Assembly: GCA_958296285.1 (NCBI GenBank)
Contig: OY282459.1
Location: forward strand, 1,282,762-1,346,761
Direction of reading: 5' to 3'
DNA length: 64,000 nt
From: an uncultured Alphaproteobacteria bacterium
GTDB lineage: Bacteria > Pseudomonadota > Alphaproteobacteria > JAPOUT01 > G958296285
Within the stretch, counting starts at the first letter, position 1. Every line of letters begins with the position of its first letter. A model generated the notes under the pieces. The model was given only the letters and a program-made list of their open reading frames with translations. It made no database searches and had not been told where the DNA came from. A program made the position numbers and the translations under genes. Shown piece by piece: positions 6,306 to 58,253 of this stretch.

Positions 6306-8231
6306 ATGCGGGCGGGACTATCGCATAGGGGTCTTGTCATGCTGGATCGCCTCAGACGCGCCACCGCCCATTGGATGGCGCGCATTCTGATCGGATTGTT
6401 GGCGCTGAGTTTCGCCTTTTGGGGAGTCGGCGATCTTGTCGCGCCGTCTCGTGATCCGGCAATCGCCGAGGTCGGGGACGCCGTCATTCCGCAGACTGTC
6501 TTCCAGCGCTCGCTAAACATCCTCCGCGAAAATCTGCGACAGCAGGGGCGCGCCCTCGCTTTTGACGAAATCCGCCAACTCGGACTGGATCGGCAGGTTC
6601 TGAACCTGCTGACTCGTCAAGAAGCGCTGTCGCTCGGGGCGGCGGCGCTGGGTCTGGACATTTCAGACAGGCGAATCGCCGAGGAAATCCGCGATGATCC
6701 CGCCTTCCAAGGACCTTTCGGCGGATTTGATCGGCAGACCTTCCGCGTGATTCTCGCCGAAGCGGGCTTGAGCGAGCAGCGATTCGCCGAAGAGCGCCGC
6801 AAAGTGCATCTGCGCCGCCAACTCGCCGCGACTGTCCTCGCCTCGCCCCCCGCCTCCGATATTCTCGCCCGCGCGCTCATCAAGCACAGTTTGGAAAAGA
6901 GGATTTTGGAATATGCCCTCCTCCCGATCTCTCTCGCGCCGAAGCCAAAGAGCCCAAATGACGAAACGCTCAAAAAATTCCTAACCCGCGAGCCTTCTCT
7001 CTTCATTCGCCCTGAGCGGCGCGACATTCTTTTGTTGGAGCTGAAGCCGGAGCATTTTTTCTCGTCTCTCGCCGTCTCCGAAGACGAAATCCGCGCCGAT
7101 TACGACGAGCGGCGCATGAGTTTCCGAACCCCTGAAAAGCGCGAAGTAGAGCAAATCATCTTCGCCTCGCGCGATGAAGCCGATGCCGCCCATGCCCGCC
7201 TCAAGAAGGGCGTCTCTTTCGCCGCGATCGCCGGCGAGAAGGGTTTGTCGGAGGAAGATCGGAATCTGGGGCTTCTCTCTGAGCGGGAGTTTTTGTCGCC
7301 CTCTTTGGCGGAAGCGGCTTTCGCTCTCAAAAAGGGCGAAGTGAGCGCTGTCGTGGAGGGGCCTTTGGGGCCGGTTCTGCTGCGAGTTGCCAAAATCGCG
7401 CGAGGCGAGGAGCGAAGCCTCGCTTCCGTCCGCGATCGCGTCAGGAGAGACATTCTGCGCCGCAAATCCGCCGGCGAGATGGAGACCATGCGAAATATCG
7501 TGGAAGACGCGCTGGCAGGGGGCGCGTCTTTGCGCGAAGCGGCGTCTGATCATTCGCTGCCGATCTCGGAACTGAAGGGCGTCTCCGCCGATGGAACAAG
7601 CGCGAAAGGCGCGAAACTGCCCGAGAGGGAGGGGCTGCTTGCCGCCGCCTTCGCCGCCGCGGAACATGAAGAGAGCGCCGCGCGAGAAATGGAAGAGGGC
7701 GGATATTTTTGGCTGGAAGTGGAAAAAATCCATCCCTCGCGCATTCCGTCTTTTGACGAGATTAGGGACGAAGCGCGGAAAATCTGGCGGAAGGAAACGC
7801 GGCGTCTCGCTCTCATTCGGCTCGCGGCGGATCTTGCCGAGCGCGGAAATGGGGGCGAAGATTTGCGCGATCTTCTCAAGAAATATGACCGCGCGCCGTT
7901 GAAGACGCCCGAAATTGGTCGTTTTTTCCGAAGCGATGTTTTTTCGGCGGAGCTTGTGGAGGCGGCTTTCGCAAGACCCGAAGGTCGTTTTGTCGCCGGC
8001 TCTGCCGAGATCGGCGACAGCGTGGTTCTTGTTCGGACGGCGAAGATCGTCAAGCCCTCCCCTTCCCGCGAAGAGGAGAGCGCTTTTAGAGACGCGCTTG
8101 GCGCGCGCTTGGCGAATGAGTTTTTGGAGCAATATGTCGTTTTTCTTTTGGAGCGTTATGGCGTTGTCGTTCACGGCGATGTTTTGGAGAGCGCGGTTCT
8201 GTCTGGCGGCGGCGGCTTGCTCGCGCCATGA
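6306..8231 (+). CDS. ppiD: periplasmic chaperone/peptidyl-prolyl isomerase PpiD-like (SurA N-domain, N-terminal membrane anchor)
   Basis: N-terminal TM helix WMARILIGLLALSFAFWGVGDLV followed by a long SurA-like body. Start moved to MRAGLS (6306) to avoid overlap with divergent tpiA. ppiD-trpE adjacency is common in alphaproteobacteria. Confidence 0.75.
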   Translation: MRAGLSHRGLVMLDRLRRATAHWMARILIGLLALSFAFWGVGDLVAPSRDPAIAEVGDAVIPQTVFQRSLNILRENLRQQGRALAFDEIRQLGLDRQVLNLLTRQEALSLGAAALGLDISDRRIAEEIRDDPAFQGPFGGFDRQTFRVILAEAGLSEQRFAEERRKVHLRRQLAATVLASPPASDILARALIKHSLEKRILEYALLPISLAPKPKSPNDETLKKFLTREPSLFIRPERRDILLLELKPEHFFSSLAVSEDEIRADYDERRMSFRTPEKREVEQIIFASRDEADAAHARLKKGVSFAAIAGEKGLSEEDRNLGLLSEREFLSPSLAEAAFALKKGEVSAVVEGPLGPVLLRVAKIARGEERSLASVRDRVRRDILRRKSAGEMETMRNIVEDALAGGASLREAASDHSLPISELKGVSADGTSAKGAKLPEREGLLAAAFAAAEHEESAAREMEEGGYFWLEVEKIHPSRIPSFDEIRDEARKIWRKETRRLALIRLAADLAERGNGGEDLRDLLKKYDRAPLKTPEIGRFFRSDVFSAELVEAAFARPEGRFVAGSAEIGDSVVLVRTAKIVKPSPSREEESAFRDALGARLANEFLEQYVVFLLERYGVVVHGDVLESAVLSGGGGLLAP

Positions 8232-9772
8232 GCGCCCCTTTCCCTGACGCCTCCGCTTTCCGCGACATTCACAATGCAGGCAAGACGCAGATCGTTCGGC
8301 TGACGCTGCCTGCCGATTTGGAAACGCCTGTCGCCGCGATGATCAAATTGGCGGCGGGGAAGCGCGGCGCGTTCCTTTTTGAATCGGTGGAGGGCGGAGA
8401 GGCTCGCGGACGCTATTCCGTCATCGGCTTCGCGCCGGACGCCATTTGGCGATCTTACGGCGCGAGATGCGAGATCAATCGGCAGGCGGCGCGAGACCCT
8501 GACGCTTTTGAGATTTTGAAAGAGCCGCCTTTGGACGCGCTTCGCCGTTTCATCGCGGAGTCGCGTTTTGATCTGCCTGACGGTTTGCCGTCTTTGTCGG
8601 CGGGTTTGTTCGGCTATATGGGCTACGACATGGCGCGTCATGCCGAGCGTTTCGGGTCTCCGCCGCCTGACGCGATTGGCATTCCGGACAGCGTTTTCGC
8701 GCGTCCGTCTCGTCTTGTGGTTTTTGATTCGGTCAGCGACACGATGATTTGCATTGTTCGCTCGTCTCCGCGCCGGGGGCGCTCGGCTGACGAGGCTTAT
8801 GACGAAGCCTGTCGCGCTTTGCGCGAGATGCGGACGGCTTTGCAGAGGCCTCTGATGCCGAAGGAGCGCGGCGAGGATAGCCAGAGCGATGAAGGCGATG
8901 AAAGCGGCGGGGGCGGCGCGTCTTCGTCTGTTTCCATGCCGGTGCCGCGGTCCAACATGCAGCGCGCGCTTTATTTGGAGAAGGTTCGGCGCGTTAAGGA
9001 GTATATTTTCGCTGGCGACATTTTTCAGGCTGTTTTGAGTCAGCGTTTTTCGGCGTCTTTTTCGCTTTCGCCCATGACGCTGTATCGGTCTTTGCGGCGG
9101 ATAAATCCGTCTCCTTATCTTTATTATTTGGATTTTGGGGATTTTTCGGTTGTTGGCTCAAGTCCTGAGATTTTGGTTCGGCTGCGCGAGGGCGTGGTGA
9201 CGATTCGTCCGATTGCCGGGACTCGTCCGCGCGGGGGGTCGGCGGCGGATGATCTTCGCATTGGCGAGGAGTTGTTGTCGGATCCGAAGGAGCGCGCCGA
9301 GCATTTGATGTTGTTGGATTTGGGTCGGAATGATGTTGGGAGGGTATCGGAGATTGGTTCTGTTCGCGTGACGGAGCGTTTCGCGCTGCAGCGGACGTCT
9401 CATCTCATTCACATTGTTTCCAATGTTGAGGGTGTTTTGCGGCGCGGTTTGGAGGCTTTGGACGCTTTGATGGCGGGTTTTCCTGCTGGGACGGTTTCGG
9501 GCGCGCCGAAGATTCGGGCGATGGAGATTATTGATGAGTTGGAGGATGAGAAGCGGAGTTTATATGCGGGGGCGGTGGGGTATTTTTCGGCGAATGGGGA
9601 TATGGACAGTTGCATTGCCTTGCGGACGGCGTTGGTTAAGGATGGGGTGATGTATGTTCAGGCGGGGGGTGGGATTGTGGCGGATTCGGAGCCTGCTTAT
9701 GAGTATCGGGAGTCTGTGAAGAAGGCGGAGGTTTTGTTTCGGGCTGCTGAGGCTGTTGGAGGCTCCCGTTGA
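8228..9772 (+). CDS. trpE: anthranilate synthase component I
   Basis: 514 aa, chorismate-binding C-terminal domain. The last codons (GGSR-stop) lie inside repeat module X. Confidence 0.93.
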   Translation: MSAPFPDASAFRDIHNAGKTQIVRLTLPADLETPVAAMIKLAAGKRGAFLFESVEGGEARGRYSVIGFAPDAIWRSYGARCEINRQAARDPDAFEILKEPPLDALRRFIAESRFDLPDGLPSLSAGLFGYMGYDMARHAERFGSPPPDAIGIPDSVFARPSRLVVFDSVSDTMICIVRSSPRRGRSADEAYDEACRALREMRTALQRPLMPKERGEDSQSDEGDESGGGGASSSVSMPVPRSNMQRALYLEKVRRVKEYIFAGDIFQAVLSQRFSASFSLSPMTLYRSLRRINPSPYLYYLDFGDFSVVGSSPEILVRLREGVVTIRPIAGTRPRGGSAADDLRIGEELLSDPKERAEHLMLLDLGRNDVGRVSEIGSVRVTERFALQRTSHLIHIVSNVEGVLRRGLEALDALMAGFPAGTVSGAPKIRAMEIIDELEDEKRSLYAGAVGYFSANGDMDSCIALRTALVKDGVMYVQAGGGIVADSEPAYEYRESVKKAEVLFRAAEAVGGSR

Positions 9773-10070
9773 GGGGGGTTTGGGGGGGCGGCGAGCCGCC
9801 GCGGGCATCTTTTTCATAGAGAGGCATTTTGGCTTTACCCCAGGGGAACTAATGCATAGAAGCTTGAGGTGAAGGGGGGGTTGGGGGGCTTGCCCCCCAA
9901 GAAAAACCAAGCGGGCGCAAGCCCGCTACGGGCGGCGGGCTTCTCGCGCACTTGCGCTACGCGCTGCGTGCGCTTCGTTGCGCCACGCCCGCCGACCTTT
10001 TCGGGGGGGATTCCCCCCGACCCCCCCTTTCTCAAGGGGGGCTAGCCCCCCTTGACCCCCCTCAAGAGGT
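9773..10070. repeat. Repeat cluster A: module X (+) about 9786-9880, degenerate Z-like palindromes about 9905-9995, module Y (+) about 9995-10065
   Basis: Near-identical copies of X and Y recur at 17390-17547. Multiple G6-N-C6 micro-palindromes (ggggggattcccccc, aaggggggctagccccccttg, ggggggcttgcccccc). No coding potential. Confidence 0.85.
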
Positions 10071-10084
10071 GCTATAGTCGCCCC

Positions 10085-10672
10085 ATGATCCTCCTCATAG
10101 ACAACTACGACTCCTTCACATACAACCTCGTCCATTTCCTCGGCGAACTGGGCGCCAAAACCAACGTCCAACGAAACAACGCCACATCAGCATCAAAAGC
10201 CCTCGCCAAAAAACCCCAAGCCATCATCATCTCCCCAGGACCCAAAACCCCAAACGAAGCAGGAATATCCCTAAATCTCATAAAAACCGCCGCCAAACAC
10301 AATATCCCAACCCTCGGCGTCTGCCTCGGACACCAAACCATCGGACAAGCCTTCGGCGCGAAAATCACCCGCGCCATCCCCACCCACGGCAAAATCAGCG
10401 CCATCAACCACAACAGCAAAGGAGTCTTCCAAAAACTCCCCTCACCCCTCCAAGCCACCCGATACCACTCCCTCATCATAGAAGAAAATACGCTGCCCCA
10501 ATGCCTCGCCATCACCGCGAGAACATCAGACGGAACAATCATGGGAATCCAACATAAAACCCTCAACGCCCACGGAGTCCAATTCCACCCCGAAAGCATT
10601 GAAACCGAACACGGACACAAAATCCTCCAAAACTTCCTCAAACTCGCAGGAATAAAAGGAATAAAAAAATGA
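10085..10672 (+). CDS. trpG: anthranilate synthase component II (glutamine amidotransferase)
   Basis: MILLIDNYDSFTYNLVHFLGELG, catalytic GVCLGHQ motif. Start set at MILLID (10085), not the upstream ORF-track start. The coding strand is extremely C+A-rich and G-poor. Confidence 0.93.
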   Translation: MILLIDNYDSFTYNLVHFLGELGAKTNVQRNNATSASKALAKKPQAIIISPGPKTPNEAGISLNLIKTAAKHNIPTLGVCLGHQTIGQAFGAKITRAIPTHGKISAINHNSKGVFQKLPSPLQATRYHSLIIEENTLPQCLAITARTSDGTIMGIQHKTLNAHGVQFHPESIETEHGHKILQNFLKLAGIKGIKK

Positions 10673-11694
10673 GCGAAAACCTCAAAAAAACCCTCGCGCT
10701 TATCGCGTCAGGCGAAAAACTCGCGCCCGCCCAAGCCGAAACCGCCTTCCAACATCTCATGTCCGGCGAAGCCAAAGACGCCGAAATCGGCGCGCTCCTC
10801 ATGGGACTCCATATGCGCGGCGAAACAACAGACGAAATCGCCGCCGCCGCCAAAATCATGCGCGCCGCCGCCACGCCCGTCCAAGCCCCGAAAAACGCCA
10901 TAGACCTCTGCGGAACAGGCGGCGATATGAAAGGAAGCCTCAATATCTCCACCGCCGCGTCTTTTATAGTCGCCGCCTGCGGCGTCCCGGTGGCGAAGCA
11001 CGGAAACCGCGCGCTCTCGTCTCAGTCAGGCGCGGCGGACGTCCTTTTGGCGCTCGGCGCTGAAACCGCCCTCCCGCCCCAGACCATCGCCCAATGCATC
11101 AAGGAAACGGGCATCGGCTTCCTCTTCGCGCCCTCGCACCACCCCGCCGCGAGACATGTCGCGCCGGCGCGCGCGGCGCTCGGCATCAGGACAATCTTCA
11201 ACCTCCTCGGACCTCTCTGCAATCCCGCCTTCGTCAAACGGCAACTGATCGGAGTCTTCGCGCCCGAATGGCTGACGCCCCTCGCCGAAGTGCTGCGCGA
11301 TTTGGGAAGCGAGCGCGTTTGGATCGTTCATGGCTCGGACGGGATGGACGAAATCACCCTTTCCGGCGAAACCCGCGCCGCCGAACTCAAAAACGGCAAA
11401 GTCCGCCCCTTCACGATCACGCCCGAAGAAGCAGGACTTCCTCGCGCTCCATCGGAGAGTCTCAAAGGCGGGACGCCTCAACAGAACGCGGCGGCTCTGC
11501 GGAGACTGTTGGACAGCGAAAGCGAAAACGGGGCTTATAGAGACGCTGCCGTTCTGAACGCGGCGGCGGCGCTCGTCATCGCGGAGAAGGCAGGAGATTT
11601 GCGCGAAGGCGCGGCGCAAGCCTCCGAATCTCTTTCCAGCGGACGCGCCGCCGACACCTTTCACGCCTTTCGCAATTTCACGAAGAAGCCATGA
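10669..11694 (+). CDS. trpD: anthranilate phosphoribosyltransferase
   Basis: Motifs DLCGTGGD and SSQSGAADVL, length 341 aa. Confidence 0.93.
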   Translation: MSENLKKTLALIASGEKLAPAQAETAFQHLMSGEAKDAEIGALLMGLHMRGETTDEIAAAAKIMRAAATPVQAPKNAIDLCGTGGDMKGSLNISTAASFIVAACGVPVAKHGNRALSSQSGAADVLLALGAETALPPQTIAQCIKETGIGFLFAPSHHPAARHVAPARAALGIRTIFNLLGPLCNPAFVKRQLIGVFAPEWLTPLAEVLRDLGSERVWIVHGSDGMDEITLSGETRAAELKNGKVRPFTITPEEAGLPRAPSESLKGGTPQQNAAALRRLLDSESENGAYRDAAVLNAAAALVIAEKAGDLREGAAQASESLSSGRAADTFHAFRNFTKKP

Positions 11695-12503
11695 GGCATA
11701 TCCTCCAAACAATCCAAACCCGCAAGCGCGAGGAACTCGCCCGCGCGCGAAAAGACGCCCCCCCATCCGCGTTGGAAGCGCGGACAGGCGAAGCTCCCGC
11801 AATCCGTCTTTTCCGTGAATCTTTGGAAAAGAGGCGCGAGACAAGCCCCGCGATCATCGCCGAGATTAAAAAGGCGAGTCCTTCCAAGGGCGTCATCCGC
11901 GAGGATTTTGACCCCGCCGCTCTCGCGGAAAATTTGGAGAAAGGGGGCGCGGCGTGTTTGTCGGTGCTGACGGATAAGGATTTTTTTCAAGGCGCGGCGG
12001 AGCATCTTGGAGAGGCGAAAGAGGCGACCGCGCTCCCAATCTTGCGCAAAGATTTTCTGATAGACCCCTATCAGGCGCTAGAGAGCCGCGCTTGGGGCGC
12101 GGACGCCGTGTTGTTGATTATGGCTCTGCTGGAGCGCCAGCAAGCCGCCGAGATCGCCGCCGCCGCGAAGGAATGGGAGATGGACGTCCTCGCCGAAGCG
12201 CATGACGAGAAAGAGTTGGAAGAGGCGCTGCGCTTAGAACCCGACATGATCGGCATCAACAATCGGAATCTCAAAACTTTTGAAACCTCGCTGGATGTGT
12301 CTTTGCGTCTTGCGCGAGAGATTCCGCGAGACGCGCTCGCCATCGCCGAGAGCGGCATTGAGAGCCATGACGACATTTTGCGTCTTCAAGAGGCGGGGAT
12401 CCATTGCTTCCTCATCGGCGAAACTTTGATGCGCGCCGATGATCCGGCGCGGAAGATTCGGGAGTTGTTAGGAGAAGAGGATGAAGAAGACAAGCCATCT
12501 TGA
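11691..12503 (+). CDS. trpC: indole-3-glycerol-phosphate synthase
   Basis: IIAEIKKASPSKGVIREDFDP motif; follows trpD. Confidence 0.92.
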   Translation: MRHILQTIQTRKREELARARKDAPPSALEARTGEAPAIRLFRESLEKRRETSPAIIAEIKKASPSKGVIREDFDPAALAENLEKGGAACLSVLTDKDFFQGAAEHLGEAKEATALPILRKDFLIDPYQALESRAWGADAVLLIMALLERQQAAEIAAAAKEWEMDVLAEAHDEKELEEALRLEPDMIGINNRNLKTFETSLDVSLRLAREIPRDALAIAESGIESHDDILRLQEAGIHCFLIGETLMRADDPARKIRELLGEEDEEDKPS

Positions 12504-12960
12504 CGAGCGCGGGCGGGTCTCTATGGCGGATGTCTCGGCGAAGAAGACGACCGAGCGCCGCGCCGAAGCCGAAGCCGTCATCATTATGCGCCCCGAAACG
12601 CTGCGCGCTCTTTTAGAAGGCGAAGGCAAGAAAGGCGACGCCTTCGCCGCCGCGAGAATCGGCGGCATCATGGCGGCGAAAAAAACCGCCGATCTCATTC
12701 CGCTCTGCCATCCCCTGCCGCTTGATCATATCGCTCTCCGCTTTGAGACAGACGAGAAAAAAGGACGAATCCGCATCGCCGCCGCCGTCAAAACGACAGC
12801 CCGAACAGGCGCGGAGATGGAAGCGCTGACCGCCGCCGCCATCGCCTCCCTGACGCTCTACGACATGGCGAAAAGCGAGGAGAAAGGGATACGGATAGAA
12901 AGTCTGCGTCTTCTTTCCAAAAGCGGCGGCAAATCCAAAGATTTTAACGCCGATGGATAA
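12481..12960 (+). CDS. moaC: cyclic pyranopterin monophosphate synthase MoaC
   Basis: Motifs SMADVSAKKTT and LIPLCHPLPLD. Confidence 0.92.
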   Translation: MKKTSHLDERGRVSMADVSAKKTTERRAEAEAVIIMRPETLRALLEGEGKKGDAFAAARIGGIMAAKKTADLIPLCHPLPLDHIALRFETDEKKGRIRIAAAVKTTARTGAEMEALTAAAIASLTLYDMAKSEEKGIRIESLRLLSKSGGKSKDFNADG

Positions 12961-14161
12961 TCTCATCTCTGTGGAAGAGGCTCTGCGCCTGATGGAGGCG
13001 GCGGCGCGTCCTCTGCCTAAAACATCCGCGCCATTAAGCGAGGCGGTCGGGCGCGTTTTGGCGAAAGAGATCAAGGCGCGTCTGACGCATCCGCCCTTCG
13101 CCGTCTCGGCGATGGACGGCTTCGCGCTCCATGCCGAAGATGCGCGGACTATCCCGGCGCGTCTGAACCTCATCGGAGAGTCGGCGGCGGGGAAGCCTTA
13201 TCAAGGCGAGGTCTCTCGCGGCGAAGCGGTAAAAATCCAAACAGGCGCGAGCATCCCCTCCCCTCTTGACGCCATCGCGCCCAAAGAGATAACGAAAACC
13301 GAAGGCGAGCATGTCAAGATTCTGAAACCTGTTCTGATCAAGCGGTTCATTCGAGAGGCGGGGCAGGATTTTTCTCGCCGGGAGGTTCTTCTTCCGAAAG
13401 GGCATCTGTTGGACGCGGCGGCGATCGGTCTGGCGGCGGCGGGCGGACATGACGCGCTTATCGTTCCGAGAAAGCCGCGCGTTTCGGTTTTGGCGTCAGG
13501 GAGCGAGCTTGTCGCGGCAGGCGTCTCGCCCAAGCGCGGGCAGATCGTCTCGTCCAACTCTTACGTTTTGACGGCGCTCTTGAATCAGATGAACGCGGAA
13601 GTTGAAGATTTAGGGATTGCGTCCGATTCTCTCGCCGATTTGGAAAGCGCGCTCGCCAAAAGCGCCGCGCCCGATCTTCTGATCACTATAGGGGGCGTTT
13701 CGGTCGGCGAGCATGACCTCATTCTGCCCGCTCTTCGCAAGCGGGGTTTTGAGACAATTCTGCATGGCGTGGCAATGCGTCCGGGAAAACCTTTTCTTTT
13801 CGGACGTTTGGGCAAGGCTTTTGTCATGGGTCTTCCCGGGAATCCTGTCTCGGCGCTTGTCTGCGCGCATCTTTTCATAAGACCTTTCCTGCGCGCGCTC
13901 GGCGGACATGACGCGCCCTATCAAGACAAAAGCGAATCCGCGATCCTTGACAAAAGCATCCCCGCCAATGGCGCGAGGCAGTCTTATCTGCGGGGACGTT
14001 TAAGAAAAGACGGAGACGCGCTTCACGTCCTCCCCTTCGCGCGACAAGACAGCGCGCTCCTTCGGGATATGGCTTATGCAGACGCGCTCATTTCGCGCCC
14101 TCCGTCAAGCCCGTCGGCCGAAGCGGGCGATGAAACTCGGATCTTGCGCCTCGCTTTCTAG
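12953..14161 (+). CDS. moeA: molybdopterin molybdotransferase MoeA
   Basis: 402 aa, MoeA-like N-terminal and MoCF-binding regions. trpGDC-moaC-moeA order is conserved in alphaproteobacteria. Confidence 0.9.
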   Translation: MDNLISVEEALRLMEAAARPLPKTSAPLSEAVGRVLAKEIKARLTHPPFAVSAMDGFALHAEDARTIPARLNLIGESAAGKPYQGEVSRGEAVKIQTGASIPSPLDAIAPKEITKTEGEHVKILKPVLIKRFIREAGQDFSRREVLLPKGHLLDAAAIGLAAAGGHDALIVPRKPRVSVLASGSELVAAGVSPKRGQIVSSNSYVLTALLNQMNAEVEDLGIASDSLADLESALAKSAAPDLLITIGGVSVGEHDLILPALRKRGFETILHGVAMRPGKPFLFGRLGKAFVMGLPGNPVSALVCAHLFIRPFLRALGGHDAPYQDKSESAILDKSIPANGARQSYLRGRLRKDGDALHVLPFARQDSALLRDMAYADALISRPPSSPSAEAGDETRILRLAF

Positions 14162-14607
14162 AGCAGCCCCGCCTCCGTCAAAGCCGCGCGCAGCTCTTCG
14201 GGCATATCGTCCGACAAGCCCGCTCTTTCCAAATCGGGGGGCGCGTCTTTCGCTTCCAAATAGCGCCAGCCCTGAAAAGCGCGGCGCGGGAAGGGCTTCG
14301 TCAGAACGAGTTCCAAATCCAAATCCAAAAGACAGCGCTTCACGCCGTCTCGCCCCTTATGCGGACGAATATCCAGAATCCTCTGCCGCGCCGCGATGAC
14401 GCCCCGAAAAACCCAATAAAGAGAGCCGTTCCGCGGCGAGCCGCTCGCCAAAATCTCTTCGCGCCGCTTCGGCGTCATGCGCGTGATGTGGAAGAGTTCG
14501 GGCGACTGCCCTCTCGCTTTTTGAGAGGCGATCTCGTCTCGCTGCCATCGCGCGAGTTCGGCGGGCGACCCCACGCCCACGCACAATTTGACCAAATGCA
14601 GCGTCAT
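14158..14607 (-). CDS. DUF1489-family protein (alphaproteobacterial conserved hypothetical)
   Basis: N-terminus MTLHLVKLCVGV matches the DUF1489 signature. Start set at the internal Met (14607). Confidence 0.65.
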   Translation of the reverse strand: MTLHLVKLCVGVGSPAELARWQRDEIASQKARGQSPELFHITRMTPKRREEILASGSPRNGSLYWVFRGVIAARQRILDIRPHKGRDGVKRCLLDLDLELVLTKPFPRRAFQGWRYLEAKDAPPDLERAGLSDDMPEELRAALTEAGLL

Positions 14608-14614
14608 AAAGACC

Positions 14615-15985
14615 TCACAGCAGAAAATACGCCGCCAAGCCCAAAAAGGCGAAAAAGCCGACAACATCCGTGACTGTCGTCAAAAACACGCCGGACGAAA
14701 TGGCGGGATCGGCGCCGATTTTCTCTAATGCCAGAGGGATCAGAATTCCAGCGAGCGCGGCGGTCAGCATATTGACAATCACGGCGGCGAAAAGAACCAT
14801 CCCAAGCGCGAAATTCTTAAACCACGCGCCTCCAATCACCCCCAAAATCACGGCAAGCGATACGCCATTCAGAACTCCCACGCCGATCTCGCGCATGATG
14901 ATCCTGCGCTGATTCGCCGCGACAAGCTCGCGAGTCGCCAGCGCGCGCACGGCGACGGTGAGAGTCTGAATGCCCGCCACGCCTCCCATGGACGCCACGA
15001 TCGGCATCAGAACCGCCAGCGCCACCATTCCGGCGATCGCGTCCTCAAAAAGCGCGATGACGACAGACGCCAAAATCGCCGTCATCAGATTGACGAAGAG
15101 CCATAAAAAGCGTCTGCGCGCCGATTCCAGCACCGTGCCGGAGAGTCTGTCGCGTCCGACTCCGCCGAGCCTCTTGATGTCTTCGCTCGCTTCTTCGGTG
15201 ATGACTTCCACGATGTCGTCCGCCGTGATCATGCCCATCAGCATGCCGTTCTGATCCACGACGGGCGCGCTGACCAGATTATATCGGCGGAAGGCTTCGG
15301 CGACATCTTCGCGGTCTTTATGGGCTTCTATCTTGAGAGGCTCGCCCTGCATCAGGCTGTTCAGAGACTCTTCGCGCTTGGCGCGGACGAGGCGGCTCGT
15401 CAAGACGCTTCCGATGAGTCTCCATGTCGGGCTGACGATATAGATTTCGTAGAAATCCTTCGGGAGTTCGGCGCTTTGGCGCAGATGGTCTATGACGCGT
15501 CCTACGCTCCAGAAGGCGGGGACGGCGACCAGATCGCGCTGCATGAGGCGTCCTGCGCTGTCTATCGGGTAATCCAGTCCGCGCTCAATATCGGAGCGCG
15601 CGCGGAGGGGAACGCGATCTAGGATATTTCTTCGGCGGGTTTCGTCCAGCCCTTCCACGAGGGCGAGCGCGTCATCGGAGGCGATTGTGGCGAGGGCGGG
15701 CGCGAGTTTTTCGGGGGCGAGGAGCGGGAGGATATCGGCGAGGACGCCTTCTTCCAGTTCCGAGAGGATTTCGGGCTTGAGTTCGTCATTGAGGAGGGTG
15801 ATGAGTTTGTGTCGTTCTTCGGGTTTGAGGAGTTCTAGGATTTCGGCGGCGTCTGCGGCGTGGAGTTCGTGGATTTGGTTTTGGAGTTTCGCGCGATGTT
15901 CCGCGGTGATGGCTTCGCGCGTTTCTTGGAGGATATTTGGGACGGGCGTTTCGGTGGGTTCCGTGGTGTGGGGGGGATTAGACAT
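14615..15985 (-). CDS. mgtE: magnesium transporter MgtE
   Basis: 456 aa, with MgtE N-domain, CBS pair and a C-terminal TM domain containing PIVASMGGVAGIQT-like motifs. Confidence 0.9.
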   Translation of the reverse strand: MSNPPHTTEPTETPVPNILQETREAITAEHRAKLQNQIHELHAADAAEILELLKPEERHKLITLLNDELKPEILSELEEGVLADILPLLAPEKLAPALATIASDDALALVEGLDETRRRNILDRVPLRARSDIERGLDYPIDSAGRLMQRDLVAVPAFWSVGRVIDHLRQSAELPKDFYEIYIVSPTWRLIGSVLTSRLVRAKREESLNSLMQGEPLKIEAHKDREDVAEAFRRYNLVSAPVVDQNGMLMGMITADDIVEVITEEASEDIKRLGGVGRDRLSGTVLESARRRFLWLFVNLMTAILASVVIALFEDAIAGMVALAVLMPIVASMGGVAGIQTLTVAVRALATRELVAANQRRIIMREIGVGVLNGVSLAVILGVIGGAWFKNFALGMVLFAAVIVNMLTAALAGILIPLALEKIGADPAISSGVFLTTVTDVVGFFAFLGLAAYFLL

Positions 15986-16096
15986 ACGCCGCGCCTTTTT
16001 TGCTTTTTTGTCTGTGGCGTATATTTAGCCTATGGGGGCTGATTTATAAAAGCCCCCGACTCTTTTGGATCGGGGGCGAGTTTGTGAGATTTTGTT

Positions 16097-16426
16097 CTAG
16101 GATGCTAATTTGAGAAGGATTGCGCCTGTCAGAGTGAAATTCGCTATCATGAAGGTGATGGTGACTCCGAACATCCATTTTAGCAGGCGCATGTCGGCTT
16201 GGACTTCTCCGAAGCGTTTTTCCATGTCTATTCTGAGTTCTCCGATCTGCGCGTTCATATCGGCGCGGAGTTCTCCGACCCGTTCTTCCACGTTCCGAAG
16301 CCGTTCTTCTATGTTCCGAAGCCGTTGCTCATCGCGGTTGGCTTCCAGCGCTTCTATAGCGGCGGTGGCTTTGTGATCGCTGACTTTCGCTTCTTTGAGG
16401 GCATCATAGACTGCGACGAGGCTCAT
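16097..16426 (-). CDS. DUF1640-like coiled-coil protein with C-terminal membrane anchor
   Basis: Heptad-like repeats (LRNIEERLRNVEERVGELRADMNAQIGELRIDMEKRFGEVQADM), then LLKWMFGVTITFMIANFTLTGAIL hydrophobic tail. Internal nucleotide direct repeat ttccgaagccgttcttc x2. Confidence 0.6.
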   Translation of the reverse strand: MSLVAVYDALKEAKVSDHKATAAIEALEANRDEQRLRNIEERLRNVEERVGELRADMNAQIGELRIDMEKRFGEVQADMRLLKWMFGVTITFMIANFTLTGAILLKLAS

Positions 16427-16489
16427 GGTTTATCTCCTTATGGTTGTGTTTTTGTAGCATTTTTGGTTCTTCTGCCGCAATCTTTAGAA

Positions 16490-16650
16490 GAAAGAAAAGG
16501 GGGGTGTGGGGGGTCGGAGACCCCCCGCGAAAAAGGGGGGATCGGGGGGATTCCCCCCCGAAAAGCGCGTGGGTGGGGTGGGGAAAAGAGCATTTGCGAG
16601 CGAAGCGTAAGCGTAGCGAGCAAATGCGACCCCACCCACGCGCCCCCTGC
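16490..16650. repeat. Repeat cluster B: G6/C6 micro-palindromes plus a module Y fragment (about 16500-16560) and module Z (- orientation, about 16565-16645)
   Basis: The Z copy gcgcgtgggtggggtgggg...gcatttgcgagcg...cgagcaaatgcgaccccacccacgcgcc is the reverse complement of 17302-17393. Z is itself an imperfect ~90-nt palindrome. Confidence 0.85.
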
Positions 16651-16672
16651 TCGCAGGAGCTACTGATTCAGA

Positions 16673-17131
16673 TCAAAGATCGCCAAGCCTGCGCCGAAAC
16701 ACTTCATCAAACTTTTCTAATCTCTCCTTGAACCAAGCATATTGCGCGCATCTGTGGTTCATATTTTCCCAATCAGCTTCCTCTTCCCAGCTTTGGGTAA
16801 TAGATGGGAATCCCCATTGCAGTGGTGGAGGTGTGCCAATTTCCCTCTCAATGGCTTCTTTATCTGCATGCAGTTGGTTAAAACATTCCTTAGCGTAAAG
16901 CATGTCGGTGTCGGGGACAGGAAAACTTTTGCCATAGATAGAAAACCTAACAGCTACCTTGCGCGGCGGCGTCTTATAAAAACACGCCCATATGCGAAAG
17001 CCTGCTCTCCCCATAGAGAATCCTAGAGTGCTGCCAGACGACCGACAACGCCCGCGCCCAATATGTGAGTCAGACGCTCTGAGGCACTTAAGCAAACCTT
17101 GCCAATAGAGGCGGTGTTCTTCTTTAGACAT
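16673..17131 (-). CDS. hypothetical protein, DUF4268-like; low-GC (~47%) islet gene
   Basis: 152-aa ORF with a clean start 18 nt downstream of the tRNA-Leu 3' end. GC is far below surrounding DNA, and the ORF sits between inverted Z elements. Confidence 0.55.
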   Translation of the reverse strand: MSKEEHRLYWQGLLKCLRASDSHIGRGRCRSSGSTLGFSMGRAGFRIWACFYKTPPRKVAVRFSIYGKSFPVPDTDMLYAKECFNQLHADKEAIEREIGTPPPLQWGFPSITQSWEEEADWENMNHRCAQYAWFKERLEKFDEVFRRRLGDL

Positions 17132-17149
17132 TTGTCATTTCCGCAAAAA

Positions 17150-17236
17150 TGGTGCGGTCGAGAAGACTCGAACTTCCACGGGGTTGCCCCCACAGCGCCC
17201 TCAACGCTGCGCGTCTACCTATTCCGCCACGACCGC
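17150..17236 (-). tRNA. tRNA-Leu (anticodon GAG), 87 nt with long variable arm, CCA encoded
   Basis: Reverse complement GCGGTCGTGGCGGAATAGGTAGACGCGCAGCGTTGAGGGCGCTGTGGGGGCAACCCCGTGGAAGTTCGAGTCTTCTCGACCGCACCA folds as a cloverleaf with anticodon loop TTGAGGG. Confidence 0.85.
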
Positions 17237-17246
17237 ATCCAAAACA

Positions 17247-17275
17247 CAATTAGCAGAAATTAACCAACCCCTCAA
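17247..17275 (-). promoter_or_regulatory. putative sigma70-type promoter for tRNA-Leu (-35 TTGAGG, 17-nt spacer, -10 TAATTG)
   Basis: Read on the minus strand immediately upstream of the tRNA 5' end; hexamer spacing is canonical. Sequence-only inference. Confidence 0.3.
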
Positions 17276-17279
17276 CCTC

Positions 17280-17547
17280 GCTAGAAATCTTGCGAACAGG
17301 GGGCGCGTGGGTGGGGTCGCATTTGCTCGCTCGCTACGCCACGAGTGGCTTCTCTTCGCTCGCAAATGCTTTTTTCCCCACCCCACCCACGCGCTTTCGG
17401 GGGGATTCCCCCGAACCCCCTTTCTCAAGGGGGGCTAGCCCCCCTTGACCCCCCTTCACCTCAAGCTTCTATGAATTAGTTCCCCCTGGGGCAAACCCAA
17501 AATGCCTCTCTATGAAAAAAATGCCCGCGGCGGCTCGCCGCCCCCCC
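17280..17547. repeat. Repeat cluster C: module Z (+, about 17302-17393), module Y (+, about 17393-17455), module X (-, about 17451-17547)
   Basis: X(-) is the reverse complement of 9786-9880 with few mismatches. Y is a direct copy of 9995-10060. X abuts and extends into the cysH stop codon. Confidence 0.85.
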
Positions 17548-18312
17548 TTAACGGGAGCCTCCATGAATCCCGCACTCCTCCTTCTCTAAACCACCCCATC
17601 TACCATCACGATACGAACCCCCCGAACCAACAGAAGCCGTGCAAGGAACACACCCTATAGACAAATACCCACGCTTCACCAACGGATGAACAACCAAACT
17701 ATGCCGCTCAACATAAGAACCAAGAGCCTCCTGATCCCAATCCACAAGAGGATTAATGGAAAACCGCGCCACGCTCCCCGCCATCTCCCGAAACTCTATC
17801 GCCTCCAAAATCGCCCGACTCGCCGTCTGAAAACGCTTCCGACCCGTGATCACCGCCTCAAATCCCCCCAACGCCCGCCGCAACGGCAAAACCTTCCGAA
17901 AATGACAGCAAGCGTCAGGATCCTCGCTCCAAAGAGAACCATCCGAATCCAACCGCGCCCGATCCACAGGATCAGGACCAATGGAACGCAAATCCGTCAA
18001 ACCCAGCCGATCCTGCAATAAATCACGATAGCGAAGAGTCTCCGGAAACAACTTCCCCGTATTCAGAAAAATCACGGGAACAGACGGATCAATCTCCGAA
18101 ACCATATGCAGCAAAACCACCGACTCCGAACCAAAAGACGAAACCACCGCAATCCTGCCCGGAAAAACCTCCTTGATCATCGCCTCAAGAAGAGGCTTGC
18201 CGGACAGCGCATATTCACGCCGCAACATCTCAAGACGCGCCGCCGCCTCGGCAGGAACCTCCCCCGAAGCGCGAGGCATCGGAATCTCGGCGCGATTCTC
18301 TAAACCAGCCAT
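17548..18312 (-). CDS. cysH: phosphoadenylyl-sulfate/adenylyl-sulfate reductase (thioredoxin-dependent, Fe-S type)
   Basis: PAPS-reductase fold (SFGSESVVLLHM), CC...CxxC cysteine pairs (ACCHFRKV, CVPCT) and C-terminal ECGIH motif. The coding strand is extremely G+T-rich. Confidence 0.88.
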   Translation of the reverse strand: MAGLENRAEIPMPRASGEVPAEAAARLEMLRREYALSGKPLLEAMIKEVFPGRIAVVSSFGSESVVLLHMVSEIDPSVPVIFLNTGKLFPETLRYRDLLQDRLGLTDLRSIGPDPVDRARLDSDGSLWSEDPDACCHFRKVLPLRRALGGFEAVITGRKRFQTASRAILEAIEFREMAGSVARFSINPLVDWDQEALGSYVERHSLVVHPLVKRGYLSIGCVPCTASVGSGGSYRDGRWGGLEKEECGIHGGSR

Positions 18313-18845
18313 TTTTGATCCTCCATCATCGCGCGGCTTTTCTCACGGACAGCGCTCGGCGCTAATCCCTGATCGCGCCACCGATCCCGCGCCGCCGACA
18401 GCGCCAACAAACGATCGCGCCATTCCGCCCCATAATGGCGAGAGAGATCATCACGAAGCATCCGCGCCGCCGAAGGCGATCTGCCTCCGGTGGAAACGGC
18501 GAAAAGCAAATCCCCTCGCCGCAAAATGGACGGAACATGAAAATCGCACAAAGCCGGAATGTCTTCTGTGTTGACAAGAGCGCCGACAGCGCGCGCGCGA
18601 GCCGCGAGCGGACGGGCTTCCTCTTCCGAAAATCCCGCGATGAACAGAATCGCGCCGCGCATCTCCTCATCTTTCGGAAGACGCCGCCGAATCGGAAAAC
18701 TCATCAGAGCCTCACCGCGCGGCGCGTAGATTTCCGCCTCCATCTTTGCCGCTCCGATGAGCCGACAGCGTTTTAACAGCGGCTCGCCCTCGCCAATGAG
18801 GAGAATCTTTTTCCGATTCGGGTTAAGGACGATCGGCAGCATCAT
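18300..18845 (-). CDS. standalone siroheme-synthase N-terminal domain (precorrin-2 dehydrogenase/sirohydrochlorin ferrochelatase, SirC/Met8-like)
   Basis: Rossmann-like LLIGEGEPLLKRCRLIGAAKM, then motif PSILRRGDLLFAVSTGGRSPSAARMLRDDLS as in the CysG N-domain. Adjacent to cysH. Confidence 0.65.
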   Translation of the reverse strand: MMLPIVLNPNRKKILLIGEGEPLLKRCRLIGAAKMEAEIYAPRGEALMSFPIRRRLPKDEEMRGAILFIAGFSEEEARPLAARARAVGALVNTEDIPALCDFHVPSILRRGDLLFAVSTGGRSPSAARMLRDDLSRHYGAEWRDRLLALSAARDRWRDQGLAPSAVREKSRAMMEDQKWLV

Positions 18846-18916
18846 GCCTATAATATCGGACTTGCGCGGACGAAAAGCAAGCGCCCCCCTGCCTCCCCTG
18901 CCCTATAGACAATGCG

Positions 18917-35684: not shown

Positions 35685-35932
35685 TTGGCGGCGTCCTCCT
35701 GCTCGGGCGGCAGAGTTTTCCACCGCTTCAATTTGGACAAGGGGCGCGATTCCCGTATCCGAACCCTGTCGCCGATTCGGAAGCGGTTCTCTTCGTCATG
35801 GGCGTGATATTTCTTGCCGCGCCGCAGGATTTTCTTCAGAAGCGGATCTTTGAAGATTCGCACCACGCGGACGACCACAGTCTTGTCGCTCTTGTCGCCG
35901 ACAACCACGCCGCTCAAGATTCGTTTGGGCAT
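35681..35932 (-). CDS. rpsQ: 30S ribosomal protein S17
   Basis: [23 protein letters not shown]. Confidence 0.95.
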
Positions 35933-35935
35933 GGC

Positions 35936-36133
35936 TCAGCCTCCCTTCCCGACACGCTGACGGCGCTCGGTTTTCAAGCGGGCGATGTCGCGGCGGAGCG
36001 CGCGCAGCTGCGCCGTGTTCTTCAACTGCCCGGTCGCCTGCTCAAAGCGCAGATTCATCGCGTCCCGCGAGAAATTGCGGATGCGATCGCCAATCTGATC
36101 CAGCGAAAGATCTCGGACTTCCTGCGGCTTCAT
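35936..36133 (-). CDS. rpmC: 50S ribosomal protein L29
   Basis: MKPQEVRDLSLDQIGDRIRN. The longer upstream ORF-track start is rejected. Confidence 0.9.
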   Translation of the reverse strand: MKPQEVRDLSLDQIGDRIRNFSRDAMNLRFEQATGQLKNTAQLRALRRDIARLKTERRQRVGKGG

Positions 36134-36144
36134 CATCGCTCTCC

Positions 36145-44095: not shown

Positions 44096-44845
44096 TCATA
44101 CCCAGCCGCGAGACATGCAGGCCGGGCAGTGGCATGAATCTGTTGGAATCTTGTAATGGACCAAGCCGTGCATCACACCCTTATTTTTATCAAAGCGTCC
44201 GGCAATGTGATCAAAATAGCGAGCGTCCTTTTGCTCATAGCGCCTCCAAACCGCCCAAGCCAAGAGATCCGCAATTTGAATCAGGCGCGAAGCGGCGGAA
44301 TCGACAAATAAAGGGACTTCGGCAAGATTATGAAGTTTGCCCCATTGTGTGCCTTGCTGACGAAACCGCTGCGCGAGTCCTTGCAGAGTATTCTCATAAT
44401 GGGATTTATCCATGACGATCAGCCCACGATGAATATCCTGATTTTTTGACGCTGACCGAAAGAGGAACATGTTGAAGCGGTTGCAGATTTCTTCAAAGGC
44501 GTATTCAACAGAGTCGCCAGTCGTTCGCGCTCCCTTATCCACGATGACAGCAAAAGCCTTCACGCTCCAATGCGCGCTGTTAAGCAAATTCAACCCTTGC
44601 TCAATAGTATCAAGACGCTTCTGCCGCGCCATGCCTTTCCATGGCGCTCTCTTTCCTGTCGCCATCAAACTGGCATGAAGCTCAACATCGCCAGGGGCGC
44701 CAATCCCTAGAGACTCAACGAAATTGTCTGCTTCAGAAATGAGGTGATAGATTTGCCGCTCAAAAACCGCAACTCCGGCAAGAACAAAATGGCGCTCATT
44801 CGGGTTCCTAACGGAACCAGAACCGTCCAAATAAAGCAAATACAT
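44096..44845 (-). CDS. DUF3800-family protein, low-GC gene inserted between rpoC and the rpsL leader
   Basis: N-terminal MYLLYLDGSGS (YxDxSG-type motif), C-terminal RLIQIADLLAWAV (QxADL motif), ~250 aa. GC is ~48-50% versus >60% flanks. No ortholog expected at this conserved junction. Confidence 0.6.
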   Translation of the reverse strand: MYLLYLDGSGSVRNPNERHFVLAGVAVFERQIYHLISEADNFVESLGIGAPGDVELHASLMATGKRAPWKGMARQKRLDTIEQGLNLLNSAHWSVKAFAVIVDKGARTTGDSVEYAFEEICNRFNMFLFRSASKNQDIHRGLIVMDKSHYENTLQGLAQRFRQQGTQWGKLHNLAEVPLFVDSAASRLIQIADLLAWAVWRRYEQKDARYFDHIAGRFDKNKGVMHGLVHYKIPTDSCHCPACMSRGWV

Positions 44846-44996
44846 GAAAGACAGCCTCCAAAAAGGCAAATGCAGCCAGGTGGAGCATTAACTCGCTCCA
44901 GCAGACCGTGACAGCCACAGCCTTCCCGACCACAAAAGGAAATTTGGCGCGGCTAACGCCGAAAGTCAAGAACAAAAGCCGAAAGCAACGACAACA

Positions 44997-58055: not shown

Positions 58056-58253
58056 CCGCGACAGACAAGCCTTCCGCGCGAAACGAGAGCGCCACGGATG
58101 TAAGGCAAAGTTTCTCCCGCATTTGGACTGAGTGATGCCAATGATGTGCAAAGAACCGCTCTCCGCCGCGGGTCATTCCGGGCAGATGGCGAAAAATAGA
58201 ACGATTCGGCTATGTCTTGCAAGAGTTTTTTTAACGCTCGCGGGGATTAAATT

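Follow-up and report, generated by a model that had tools for sequence, protein, structure and literature searches.

Two-sided strand-composition gradients at intergenic junctions in an uncultured alphaproteobacterium

A stretch of 64,000 nucleotides from an uncultured Alphaproteobacteria bacterium (GenBank assembly GCA_958296285.1, contig OY282459.1, positions 1,282,762 to 1,346,761; referred to here as the window) carries a steep, two-sided gradient of strand composition at two intergenic junctions, one between trpE and trpG and the other between mgtE and cysH. On the + strand, the DNA to the left of each junction is rich in G and T and the DNA to the right is rich in C and A. Clusters of hairpin-forming repeats lie at both junctions, cluster A at the first and clusters B and C at the second. 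The gradient is real and very strong, and a mutational origin is supported because the effect is strongest at synonymous positions. As its cause we tentatively favour, at somewhat less than even confidence and judging from sequence, recurrent DNA ends at the junctions, followed by 5'-to-3' resection and damage of the exposed 3' tails.

Gradients of opposite sign flank two junctions

Strand asymmetry was expressed as KM, defined as (G+T-C-A)/N, and as K, the G+T fraction. The background standard deviation of KM in 300-nt windows over the 64 kb was 0.087. Around clusters B and C, KM in such windows reached +0.43 at 15551-16250 and -0.42 at 17351-18400, and around cluster A it reached +0.41 at 8851-9950 and -0.51 at 9951-11000. 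The step over cluster A was +1.56, compared with a null standard deviation of 0.17 and a null maximum of 0.51. For third codon positions, scored per block of 80 codons, the background standard deviation was 0.19 and the background maximum 0.55 in absolute value. About 90% of third positions obeyed the bias over the first 400 to 600 nt from a junction, and background was regained by about 1.2 kb.

The left flank of the B/C locus (14900..16489) consists of the 5' half of mgtE, a spacer at 15986-16096 and the gene cc109. The mgtE gene (14615..15985, - strand) encodes a Mg2+ transporter with Pfam matches to MgtE, MgtE_N and CBS, and its 5' third is written in C/A-rich codons. Third-position KM, read on the + strand, passes from -0.23 to +0.65 toward the 5' end of mgtE, climbing through +0.33, +0.35, +0.50 and +0.65 as position 15985 is approached. 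The third-position G/T fraction is 0.83 beside the mgtE start and returns to baseline within about 1 kb. The bias extends to the non-coding spacers left of cluster B, which have K of 0.67 and 0.70.

In the right flank (17548..18850), the third-position C/A fraction per 200 nt runs 0.87, 0.88, 0.94, 0.79, 0.72, 0.65 and 0.55. Most of this DNA is cysH (17548..18312, - strand; PAPS/APS reductase, Pfam PAPS_reduct, 4.5e-40), in which nearly all codons end in G or T, with third-position KM of -0.72 to -0.80 on the + strand and four-fold sites at C.47, A.43, G.09 and T.01. The tail of the gradient is borne by a sirohaem-synthase-like gene (18300..18845, - strand; Pfam NAD_binding_7 and Sirohm_synth_M), where third-position KM is -0.42 and then -0.23. 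An earlier sequence-only reading of the window had described G/T-rich DNA left of cluster B and C/A-rich DNA right of cluster C, with the same polarity as at cluster A and a decay to balance by about 18600. The KM profiles agree with this description, and balance is regained near 18.6-18.8 kb. The composition given for 15901-15960 (G.42, T.32, C.18, A.08) was reproduced exactly; that for 17581-17640 held for C (.43), with A.32, T.15 and G.10 counted here, versus 12% each claimed for G and T.

At cluster A (9773..10084) the gene order is trpE, cluster, trpG and trpD, with all three genes on the + strand. Along trpE, third-position KM climbs from +0.03 to +0.82; in the left flank proper (8500..9772, the 3' part of trpE) the climb is from +0.42 to +0.82, and four-fold sites are G.48, T.34, C.16 and A.02. 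In the right flank (10085..11400, trpG and the 5' part of trpD), it starts at -0.78 to -0.87 and then declines in size through -0.65 and -0.35 to -0.28, with four-fold sites at C.69, A.22, G.08 and T.01.

The sign of the skew is thus set by the side of the junction. The trpE and trpG genes, both on the + strand, have opposite signs, as do mgtE and cysH, both on the - strand. Since the sign is independent of gene orientation, the gradient reflects neither codon-usage nor sense-transcription bias, as the sequence-only reading had argued. Sense-transcription asymmetry would fit trpE and cysH; it is reversed in trpG/trpD, mgtE, the cc genes and two further flanking genes of the loci described below (HAD and SdhC). 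Third and four-fold positions carry the strongest effect, up to 92% G/T or C/A, and first and second codon positions shift much less. On the strand whose 3' end faces the cluster, only 1-3% of four-fold sites are A and 8-19% are C. The GC content of the affected DNA, which consists of single-copy housekeeping genes, drops only from about 0.61 to about 0.54.

Polarised substitutions show loss of C and A from one strand

The window was compared with relatives at different distances. The closest homologue of CysH is 98% identical and lies on a 1.72-Mb contig (locus L013); the next best is at most 68% identical. L013 has the gene order of the window, about 98% DNA identity, clusters at the equivalent places and the same skews. 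Two syntenic distant relatives (loci L014 and L016, 55-65% protein identity) served as outgroups. In these, trpE and trpG are 45 nt apart or overlap, and cysH, tRNA-Leu and mgtE are divided by ordinary spacers only; there are no repeat clusters, no insertions and no skew at the equivalent positions. The databases searched held no relative of intermediate divergence.

Changes were counted at sites where both outgroups agree and the window differs, and were oriented on the strand with its 3' end facing the centre of the skew. The ratio of changes toward G/T to changes away from G/T was 69:8 in the 3' part of trpE, 83:8 in trpG and the 5' part of trpD, and 70:12 in cysH, compared with about 1:1 in control segments. 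The poorly conserved N-terminus of mgtE gave a weak 43:28. The dominant changes were C>T, A>G and C>G, which were far above their reverses in three of the four flanks and weakly so in mgtE. In the window lineage, the strand with its 3' end toward the centre has therefore been depleted of C and A. The sequence-only reading had proposed this comparison as a check on a mutational process. The strength of the skew at synonymous positions and the direction of the polarised substitutions both bear out such a process, although of the two regions it named, cysH responds clearly and the mgtE 5' region only weakly.

The encoded proteins have also shifted. The keto score of CysH lies at z=+3.5 relative to 119 homologues, with S and V up and T, D, K, Q and N down; of the G, V, L, S and R richness described earlier, only the part concerning S and V stands, as G, L and R are not clearly enriched. 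The amino-acid composition of TrpG has moved the opposite way, and the N-terminus of MgtE is enriched in P, T, H, N and Q relative to the outgroups. The identity of skewed-gene proteins to the outgroups is not below that of neighbouring genes. Nor is divergence between the window and L013 raised in the skewed zones, where differences are few and not in excess. Because L013 shares the skew and the skewed zones are no more divergent than other DNA, the skew predates the split between these two genomes.

The true start of trpG is the ATG at 10085 (MILLIDNY...), as judged from the outgroups; the mechanically called open reading frame began at the TTG at 10052, and cluster A accordingly reaches to about 10084. 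In the segment 11000-12000 (end of trpD, start of trpC), the window differs from L013 at about 69 positions per kb, with symmetric substitution types and six indels, compared with about 2-20 differences in most other 500-nt bins. This stretch may be an imported recombination tract.

A single centre at the B/C locus

The DNA between the two flanks of the B/C locus has a composite structure. Cluster B (16490..16665), an imperfect palindrome of nested G-run and C-run hairpins, is an inverted copy of part of cluster C, and its inverted repeats I3 and I4 are 94-95% complementary to 17288-17404. It is followed by an islet gene with a Pfam DUF4268 match (16673..17131, - strand), by a tRNA-Leu(GAG) gene (17150..17236, - strand; found by ARAGORN and Rfam), by a 43-nt spacer (17237..17279) and by cluster C, whose hairpin part (17280..17429) combines the inverted copy of cluster B with small G6-N-C6 hairpins. 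A terminator-like module, designated X (17430..17563, - strand), completes the array, and cysH takes its final codons (GGSR-stop) from it. The islet and the tRNA gene are thus bracketed by two inverted copies, clusters B and C.

Clusters B and C do not form a centre each. The spacer of 43 nt that separates tRNA-Leu from cluster C is already C/A-rich (G.05, T.16, C.35, A.44; K=0.21), so that cluster C lies inside the right flank and the locus probably has one centre, left of tRNA-Leu, between it and cluster B. The strain-specific DNA of the locus occupies this same region left of the tRNA gene. The DUF4268 gene, at or near the centre, is strain-specific, low in GC (0.51 at four-fold sites) and unskewed, with third-position KM of -0.03 and -0.18, as had been expected for a recently arrived islet interior. 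At the same junction of L013, 98% identical to the window, there is instead a glutathione S-transferase gene (11191-11865); both genes are low in GC and unskewed. The tRNA-Leu gene, earlier regarded as part of the islet, is ancestral here because both outgroups carry tRNA-Leu at the equivalent place; the L014 copy is 97.8% identical.

The gradient recurs at further junctions

The gene cc109 (16097..16426, - strand) encodes a 109-aa coiled-coil, tail-anchored small protein and lies just downstream of the B/C centre, pointing away from it. It has 35 homologues, nearly all of them on the window's own 1.733-Mb contig and on the sister 1.724-Mb contig. The family is multicopy and lineage-specific, with identities of 34-77%, and is absent from the outgroup loci. 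The sequence-only reading had called this gene a DUF1640 gene. The gene itself has only a weak Pfam coiled-coil match; two of its paralogues carry the precomputed annotation PF07798, which we take to be the DUF1640 family, and to that extent the name holds.

Two additional 20-kb loci of the sister genome (L033 and L035) were reached via cc paralogues. They contain seven more steps, four in L033 and three in L035, all passing from + to - with nearly equal profiles. In L033 the steps lie between a TauD gene and a cc paralogue; between hyp926 and a VWA gene, with a cc cassette; between the VWA and an AAA gene, with an islet of methylase-HNH and BrnA genes; and between a SIR2 and an antiporter gene, with a RmuC islet plus a hairpin cluster. 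Within the antiporter gene, third-position KM is as low as -0.91. All three step centres of L035 hold hairpin clusters. The generalisation rests on these seven additional steps. The two loci of the window, previously offered as independent evidence, do have the same polarity, yet they are weaker evidence than was assumed because they share repeat modules and one genome.

The cc copies of the window (16097-16426), L013 (12234-12748), L033 (6617-7042 and 10001-10318) and L035 (10001-10405 and 10606-10911) each lie just downstream of a skew centre and are oriented away from it, with paralogues adjoining four other centres. At the second centre of L035 the right-hand gradient is shifted outward by about 1 kb of cc genes; thus, this cc cassette was inserted later, at the centre itself.

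Over nine flanks, the biased third-position fraction per 200 nt is 0.88, 0.87, 0.82, 0.77, 0.65, 0.59 and 0.54, that is, a plateau at about 0.88, a half-distance of about 800 nt with a width of about 170 nt, and baseline by about 1.2 kb. Among the intergenic gaps of the window, L033 and L035 (104 kb in all), those with at least three G5/C5 runs had a median step of +0.68 (n=11), and the others had a median step of +0.02 (n=37; Mann-Whitney p=7e-4). Every hairpin cluster seen sits at a step. However, three of the L033 steps are equally polarised and have no cluster, with a cc-family cassette or a low-GC islet at the centre. Repeats are therefore not necessary. The earlier claim that the gradient tracks the repeats is correct insofar as gradients are centred on repeat-bearing gaps and are absent from the repeat-free outgroups, and it fails at these three steps. 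What all centres have in common is an intergenic junction, often with inserted DNA.

These loci exclude several conventional sources of skew. Skew from a replication origin or terminus does not fit nine sign switches in 104 kb, each gone within about 1.2 kb, or a background skew in the window that is equal on both sides. Codon usage fails because the sign follows the side of the junction, because gradients run inside trpE, trpD and mgtE, and because a single gene can hold both signs: bioB (L035 8754-9764), 1 kb long and placed between centres 1.5 kb apart, has third-position KM of -0.66 in its 5' half and +0.71 in its 3' half. The absence of any mutational cause, with the pattern due to codon or amino-acid selection, a mosaic of horizontal transfers or an assembly or sequencing artefact, is barely credible. 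The shifted amino-acid composition of the skewed genes and the metagenomic origin of the assemblies would fit such causes. Yet the sign is independent of the coding strand even within bioB, the gradients run smoothly over gene boundaries in genes syntenic with the outgroups, the pattern occurs in two independent assemblies, and the reading frames are intact with strong Pfam scores.

Transcription toward the junctions is another candidate. RNA polymerases approaching from both sides might stall there, with R-loops exposing the non-template strand, whose C>T bias is well established. In each of the eight centres with both flanks readable, one or more of the flanking genes are transcribed toward the centre (the ninth, L035 19792-20116, is cut by the end of the locus and was left out of this count), and the X module at the 3' ends of trpE and cysH is terminator-like. 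Nevertheless, convergent transcription seems very unlikely as the cause: the G/T-rich strand serves as the resident gene's template in about half of the flanks (trpG/trpD, mgtE, cc genes, HAD, SdhC), a promoter scan of the clusters gave no promoter-like sites, and the gradient climbs toward the centre rather than staying flat along the transcript.

Some features of these loci stand apart from the gradients of the named genes. In L035, three hairpin clusters at 6636-8119 alternate with small open reading frames on the same strand (76 aa, an 88-aa helix-turn-helix protein and 192 aa) in an arrangement that resembles a cassette array; the frames between the clusters are unskewed and the outer flanks strongly skewed. 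Of the features of an integron cassette array with attC sites, no GTTRRRY-type core was seen there by eye, and there is no integrase within the loci. Genes of defence-island type lie between centres at 11976-17575 of L033 (a methylase-HNH fusion, a BrnA antitoxin, an AAA ATPase, SIR2 and RmuC). Strong gradients run through the AAA ATPase and SIR2 genes, whereas methylase-HNH, BrnA and RmuC have a low GC content and no skew. The window also contains weaker + to - steps at 44416-44996, at 58132-58253 (beside tRNA-Gly and tRNA-Tyr) and at 35724-36144. Their third-position steps of +0.42 to +0.50 are at the top of the null range, and no repeat cluster accompanies them; chance is one explanation, faint or old centres another.

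Cytosine and adenine are affected equally and in every context

The odds C/(C+T) are down 6-12 fold in every 5' and 3' neighbouring-base context, and the odds A/(A+G) are down 7 fold, so that the adenine shift equals the cytosine shift. A comparison of all neighbouring-base contexts revealed no preference.

This spectrum bears on the possibility that a deaminase or a mutagenic polymerase is recruited to the repeats or cc cassettes and acts outward on one strand, as a bacterial counterpart of repeat-induced point mutation (RIP) or somatic hypermutation that might diversify the adjacent multicopy cc genes. The extreme strength, sharp bounds and single-lineage occurrence of the effect would suit such a process, as would the diverged cc genes that adjoin many centres in constant orientation. 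We nonetheless consider it improbable. The lack of context preference is unlike AID/APOBEC, DddA or RIP, and the equal effect on C and A would call for two activities. Pfam searches of the surroundings of the window loci and of the window ends, which did not include the middle of the window, found no gene for a deaminase, reverse transcriptase or polymerase, and the precomputed annotations of L013, L033 and L035 contain none either. Moreover, cc genes are missing from many centres, and they are less skewed than the housekeeping genes beside them.

Particular enzymes and systems of this class can be set aside. An AID/APOBEC- or DddA-type deaminase does not agree with 6-12 fold changes in all contexts and an equally affected adenine. 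RIP is excluded by the single-copy state of the affected genes, the strand specificity, the inclusion of A>G and the small loss of GC. As for a diversity-generating retroelement, the skewed zones do not fall within any pair of repeats, mutation affects C no less than A, and there is no reverse transcriptase among the Pfam-searched genes of the window or in the precomputed annotations of the loci.

Repeat modules at the centres

Three kinds of module make up the clusters in mosaic arrangements. They are the terminator-like X module, small G6-N-C6 hairpins, and imperfect palindromes about 95-170 nt long whose ends read, for example, GGTCGGCGGGC...GCCCGCCGACC or GCGTGGGTGGGGT...ACCCCACCCACGC. In cluster A, an X module is joined by a hairpin about 170 nt long and by small ones. 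All three clusters of the window fold far better than shuffled sequence, at -86.4 kcal/mol for 9773-10051 of cluster A (z=-5.3), -56.6 kcal/mol for cluster B as single strand (z=-7.7) and -63.8 kcal/mol for 17280-17547 of the cluster C region (z=-6.6). Modules are shared among clusters A, B and C and the loci L013, L033 and L035, and the module content of the clusters differs between strains that are 98% identical.

The X module is common to the 3' ends of trpE and cysH, where it lies in opposite orientations (9757-9898 and 17430-17563); its repeats I1, I2 and I12 are 79-95% complementary to 9757-9898, and its terminator-like hairpin is at 17541-17527. TrpE and CysH both end in GGSR, with tails shorter than those of the outgroup proteins. 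From the sequences, this shared tail looks like the result of copying between loci over a gene boundary.

As folding, imperfect palindromes that form intergenic mosaics in several copies per genome, the clusters have the characteristics of repetitive extragenic palindromic (REP) elements and bacterial interspersed mosaic elements (BIME) of enterobacteria and of the intergenic mosaic elements (RIME) of rhizobia, which are likewise intergenic mosaic palindromic repeats, short, imperfect, variable, genome-repeated and mostly placed after gene 3' ends. Searches of Rfam and a plasmid collection found no sequence similarity to these families, and no associated transposase was seen in the 104 kb examined. 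We know of no report of flanking strand skew at REP, BIME or RIME elements.

Searches elsewhere gave little. In Rfam the tRNA was the sole family match, two sub-threshold small-RNA matches on G-run hairpins being discounted. A search of the plasmid collection with cluster A returned just chance G-run matches in Helicobacter. Metagenome scans gave 0 matches to the X-module pattern and 16 to the end of an H element, all of them chance matches within coding sequence and without skew, and a viral scan gave 0 matches. The G6-CTAG-C6 hairpin had 12 matches in unrelated taxa in a scan of species genomes, none with surrounding skew.

Possible origin in resected DNA ends

Under the resection model, a fixed intergenic junction would be the centre of a strand-specific mutational process, and the gradient its accumulated footprint. 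On either side, the strand with its 3' end toward the centre would repeatedly become single-stranded over about 0.8-1.2 kb. The exposed C and A would be damaged or misread, through deamination, alkylation at N3 of C and N1 of A, or both, and error-prone fill-in would then yield C>T, A>G and C>G on the exposed strand. Synonymous sites would drift to about 90% G/T while the proteins stayed functional because selection removed most amino-acid changes. The most likely source of exposure would be a double-strand break or paired nicks at the centre, resected and then repaired from the sister chromosome. The breaks might originate from cleavage of long palindromes or hairpin arrays, or from excision and insertion of the small mobile modules and cassettes that are piled at the centres.

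The observed pattern has the geometry that such a process predicts. The mutated strand switches between the two sides of every centre, each step going from + to -; C and A are the bases changed on the strand whose 3' end is at the centre; and the tract is comparable with resection, about 1-2 kb. Miscoding lesions of C and A that are specific to single strands include deamination to uracil and hypoxanthine as well as N3-methylcytosine and N1-methyladenine. Single-stranded cytosine deaminates at about 1e-10 per second. At that rate, were the strand exposed for tens of minutes in 1-10% of generations, the increment would be about 1e-9 to 1e-8 per site and generation, which by our estimate would suffice for the observed equilibrium shift of at least 7-fold. 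The absence of context preference and the equal shifts of A and C speak against enzymes of the APOBEC or DddA kind, and also against plain hydrolytic deamination as the sole cause; the pattern fits lesion bypass or error-prone filling on a damaged single-stranded template.

Ends located at the centre itself are favoured because modules shuffle and islets and cassettes insert exactly at the centres, because the last codons of a gene appear to have been copied between loci, and because the B/C locus acts as one centre, not as two equal hairpin blocks. Geometry or the data exclude other ways of exposing a strand: rolling-circle or oriT-type nicking would give the displaced strand the opposite polarity, the opposite sign is expected for a local origin bubble, and outward strand displacement and divergent transcription are likewise ruled out.

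Several points weigh against resection of broken ends. The L033 centres near 6557-6616, 9915-10660 and 11841-14700 have no palindromic cluster, and palindrome cleavage therefore cannot be the sole source of ends. The uniform tract length is unlike the Chi-dependent processing by RecBCD or AddAB and would better fit an intrinsic length, such as a repriming distance. Hydrolytic deamination of adenine is much slower than that of cytosine; the equal fold changes of A>G and C>T therefore mean that plain spontaneous deamination is not the whole chemistry. The comparison of the window with L013 does not show present-day hypermutation. Finally, sampling was biased, because the extra loci were found via cc-gene paralogues, and the whole case is built on the sequence composition of one lineage, represented by two genomes 98% identical.

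The main rival is blocked replication without breaks, which we regard as possible though on balance unlikely. Polymerases would stall at a structured or protein-bound junction and restart downstream, leaving a daughter-strand gap of about 1 kb; the gap would expose the template on the 5' side of the block, where damage or error-prone gap filling would produce the bias. By geometry, strand and polarity should be identical to those expected from breaks. The clusters are exceptionally stable hairpins, repriming beyond DNA secondary structures is described in reviews, the nine near-equal tract lengths suit the scale of repriming or Okazaki fragments better than resection, which ends variably, and a block would recur at every replication. 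On the other hand, the inverted copies B and C should block equally, yet the spacer between tRNA-Leu and cluster C is strongly C/A-rich rather than balanced. Three centres have no hairpin cluster, the left-right symmetry would require similar blocking on leading and lagging templates, and the insertion of foreign DNA and modules exactly at the centres is not explained by blocking alone.

The ends might also be extrachromosomal. Fragments that start at the junctions would be taken up or injected and recombined into clonemates, with the 3'-ended strand surviving and carrying the damage, and the junctions would be uptake-signal sites for transformation or packaging-initiation sites of a gene-transfer agent. 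As this would predict, either strand of a segment between two centres, read 5' to 3', starts rich in C and A and ends rich in G and T; uptake sequences in some bacteria are intergenic inverted repeats, and alphaproteobacteria often carry gene-transfer agents. However, these loci show no sign of competence, of a gene-transfer agent or of cutting at specific sites; the hairpin modules vary instead of forming a single conserved signal, and three centres lack modules. We give this explanation little weight, slightly less than recruited hypermutation.

Relation to known strand-coordinated mutagenesis

Strand-coordinated mutation of resected single-stranded DNA is already known in eukaryotes. At human meiotic break hotspots, single-stranded DNA is left on the forward strand to the left of the break and on the reverse strand to the right (Hinch et al. 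2023, PMC7615360), and the flanking 2 kb show a C>N and A>N asymmetry in which C>G and A>G are prominent (PMC7615360). The resemblance to the window lies in the two-sided arrangement, in the mutation of C and A of the resected single strand and in the extent of 1-2 kb. The human signal, in contrast, amounts to a slight surplus of rare variants when thousands of hotspots are pooled, whereas the changes in the window are fixed and, at single loci, have nearly saturated the synonymous sites; the host is a bacterium for which no break-making enzyme is known, and C>T is also a major change.

In yeast, mutation clusters nucleated by breaks show strand polarity or bipolarity (Taylor et al. 2013, PMC3628087), and kataegis in yeast and cancers, a kilobase-scale, strand-coordinated mutation beside a break, is attributed to damage of single-stranded DNA from resection (PMC3628087; Roberts et al. 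2012 cited there). As in the window, the changes are strand-coordinated over kilobases with a switch of polarity at the break. Kataegis differs in arising from single somatic AID/APOBEC events that affect only C, in TC or WRC context, whereas the window shows no preference for any context and equal effects on A and C, and its changes accumulated over evolution.

A graded, single-strand-dependent spectrum is also familiar from vertebrate mitochondrial DNA, in which, as Reyes et al. (1998) and Faith and Pollock (2003) are said to have found, C>T and A>G accumulate on the single-stranded heavy strand. That strand too is G/T-rich, with a gradient that follows single-stranded time and is strongest at synonymous sites. 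The mitochondrial gradient is genome-wide and stems from one replication mode; those described here are many, local, two-sided and about 1 kb long, on a bacterial chromosome.

In bacteria, SbcCD reportedly cleaves long palindromes after replication, with repair from the sister chromosome (a result ascribed to Eykelenboom et al. 2008), and mutation in Escherichia coli is said to be raised within the first few kb of a break (ascribed to Shee et al. 2012). Both come from laboratory constructs. To our knowledge, no natural compositional footprint has been reported for SbcCD palindrome breaks or break-proximal mutagenesis. A literature search for local, two-sided strand-composition gradients at intergenic repeats or junctions of bacteria found no description. 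What is unusual here is that such a pattern is fixed, near saturation, present at many sites and bacterial.

Implications

Local mutation pressure can recode whole housekeeping genes, such as trpG and cysH, and shift the amino-acid composition of their products. This matters for phylogenetics, for gene finders and for the inference of expression or horizontal transfer from codon usage.

A more specific and rather doubtful proposal is that dedicated site-specific machinery generates DNA ends at intergenic junctions, at a frequency sufficient to produce heritable zones of hypermutation about 1 kb long. Such machinery could be the mover of the hairpin modules, cc cassettes and islets, or a system for self-transformation or packaging that starts there. 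If so, the zones would recode neighbouring housekeeping genes and speed the divergence of the cc family, and bacterial break hotspots would be directly readable from chromosome sequence.

If resection of recurrent ends is the cause, the bacterial genome would hold a permanent, base-resolution record of sites of recurrent breakage or single-stranded DNA and of the strand exposed there. Sequence alone would then be enough to measure how long resection or gap tracts are in vivo (about 0.8 kb here), which mutational chemistry acts on single-stranded DNA in nature (C>T, A>G, C>G) and how fragile sites relate to the hotspots where repeats and islands insert, each of which is otherwise difficult to learn for uncultured bacteria.

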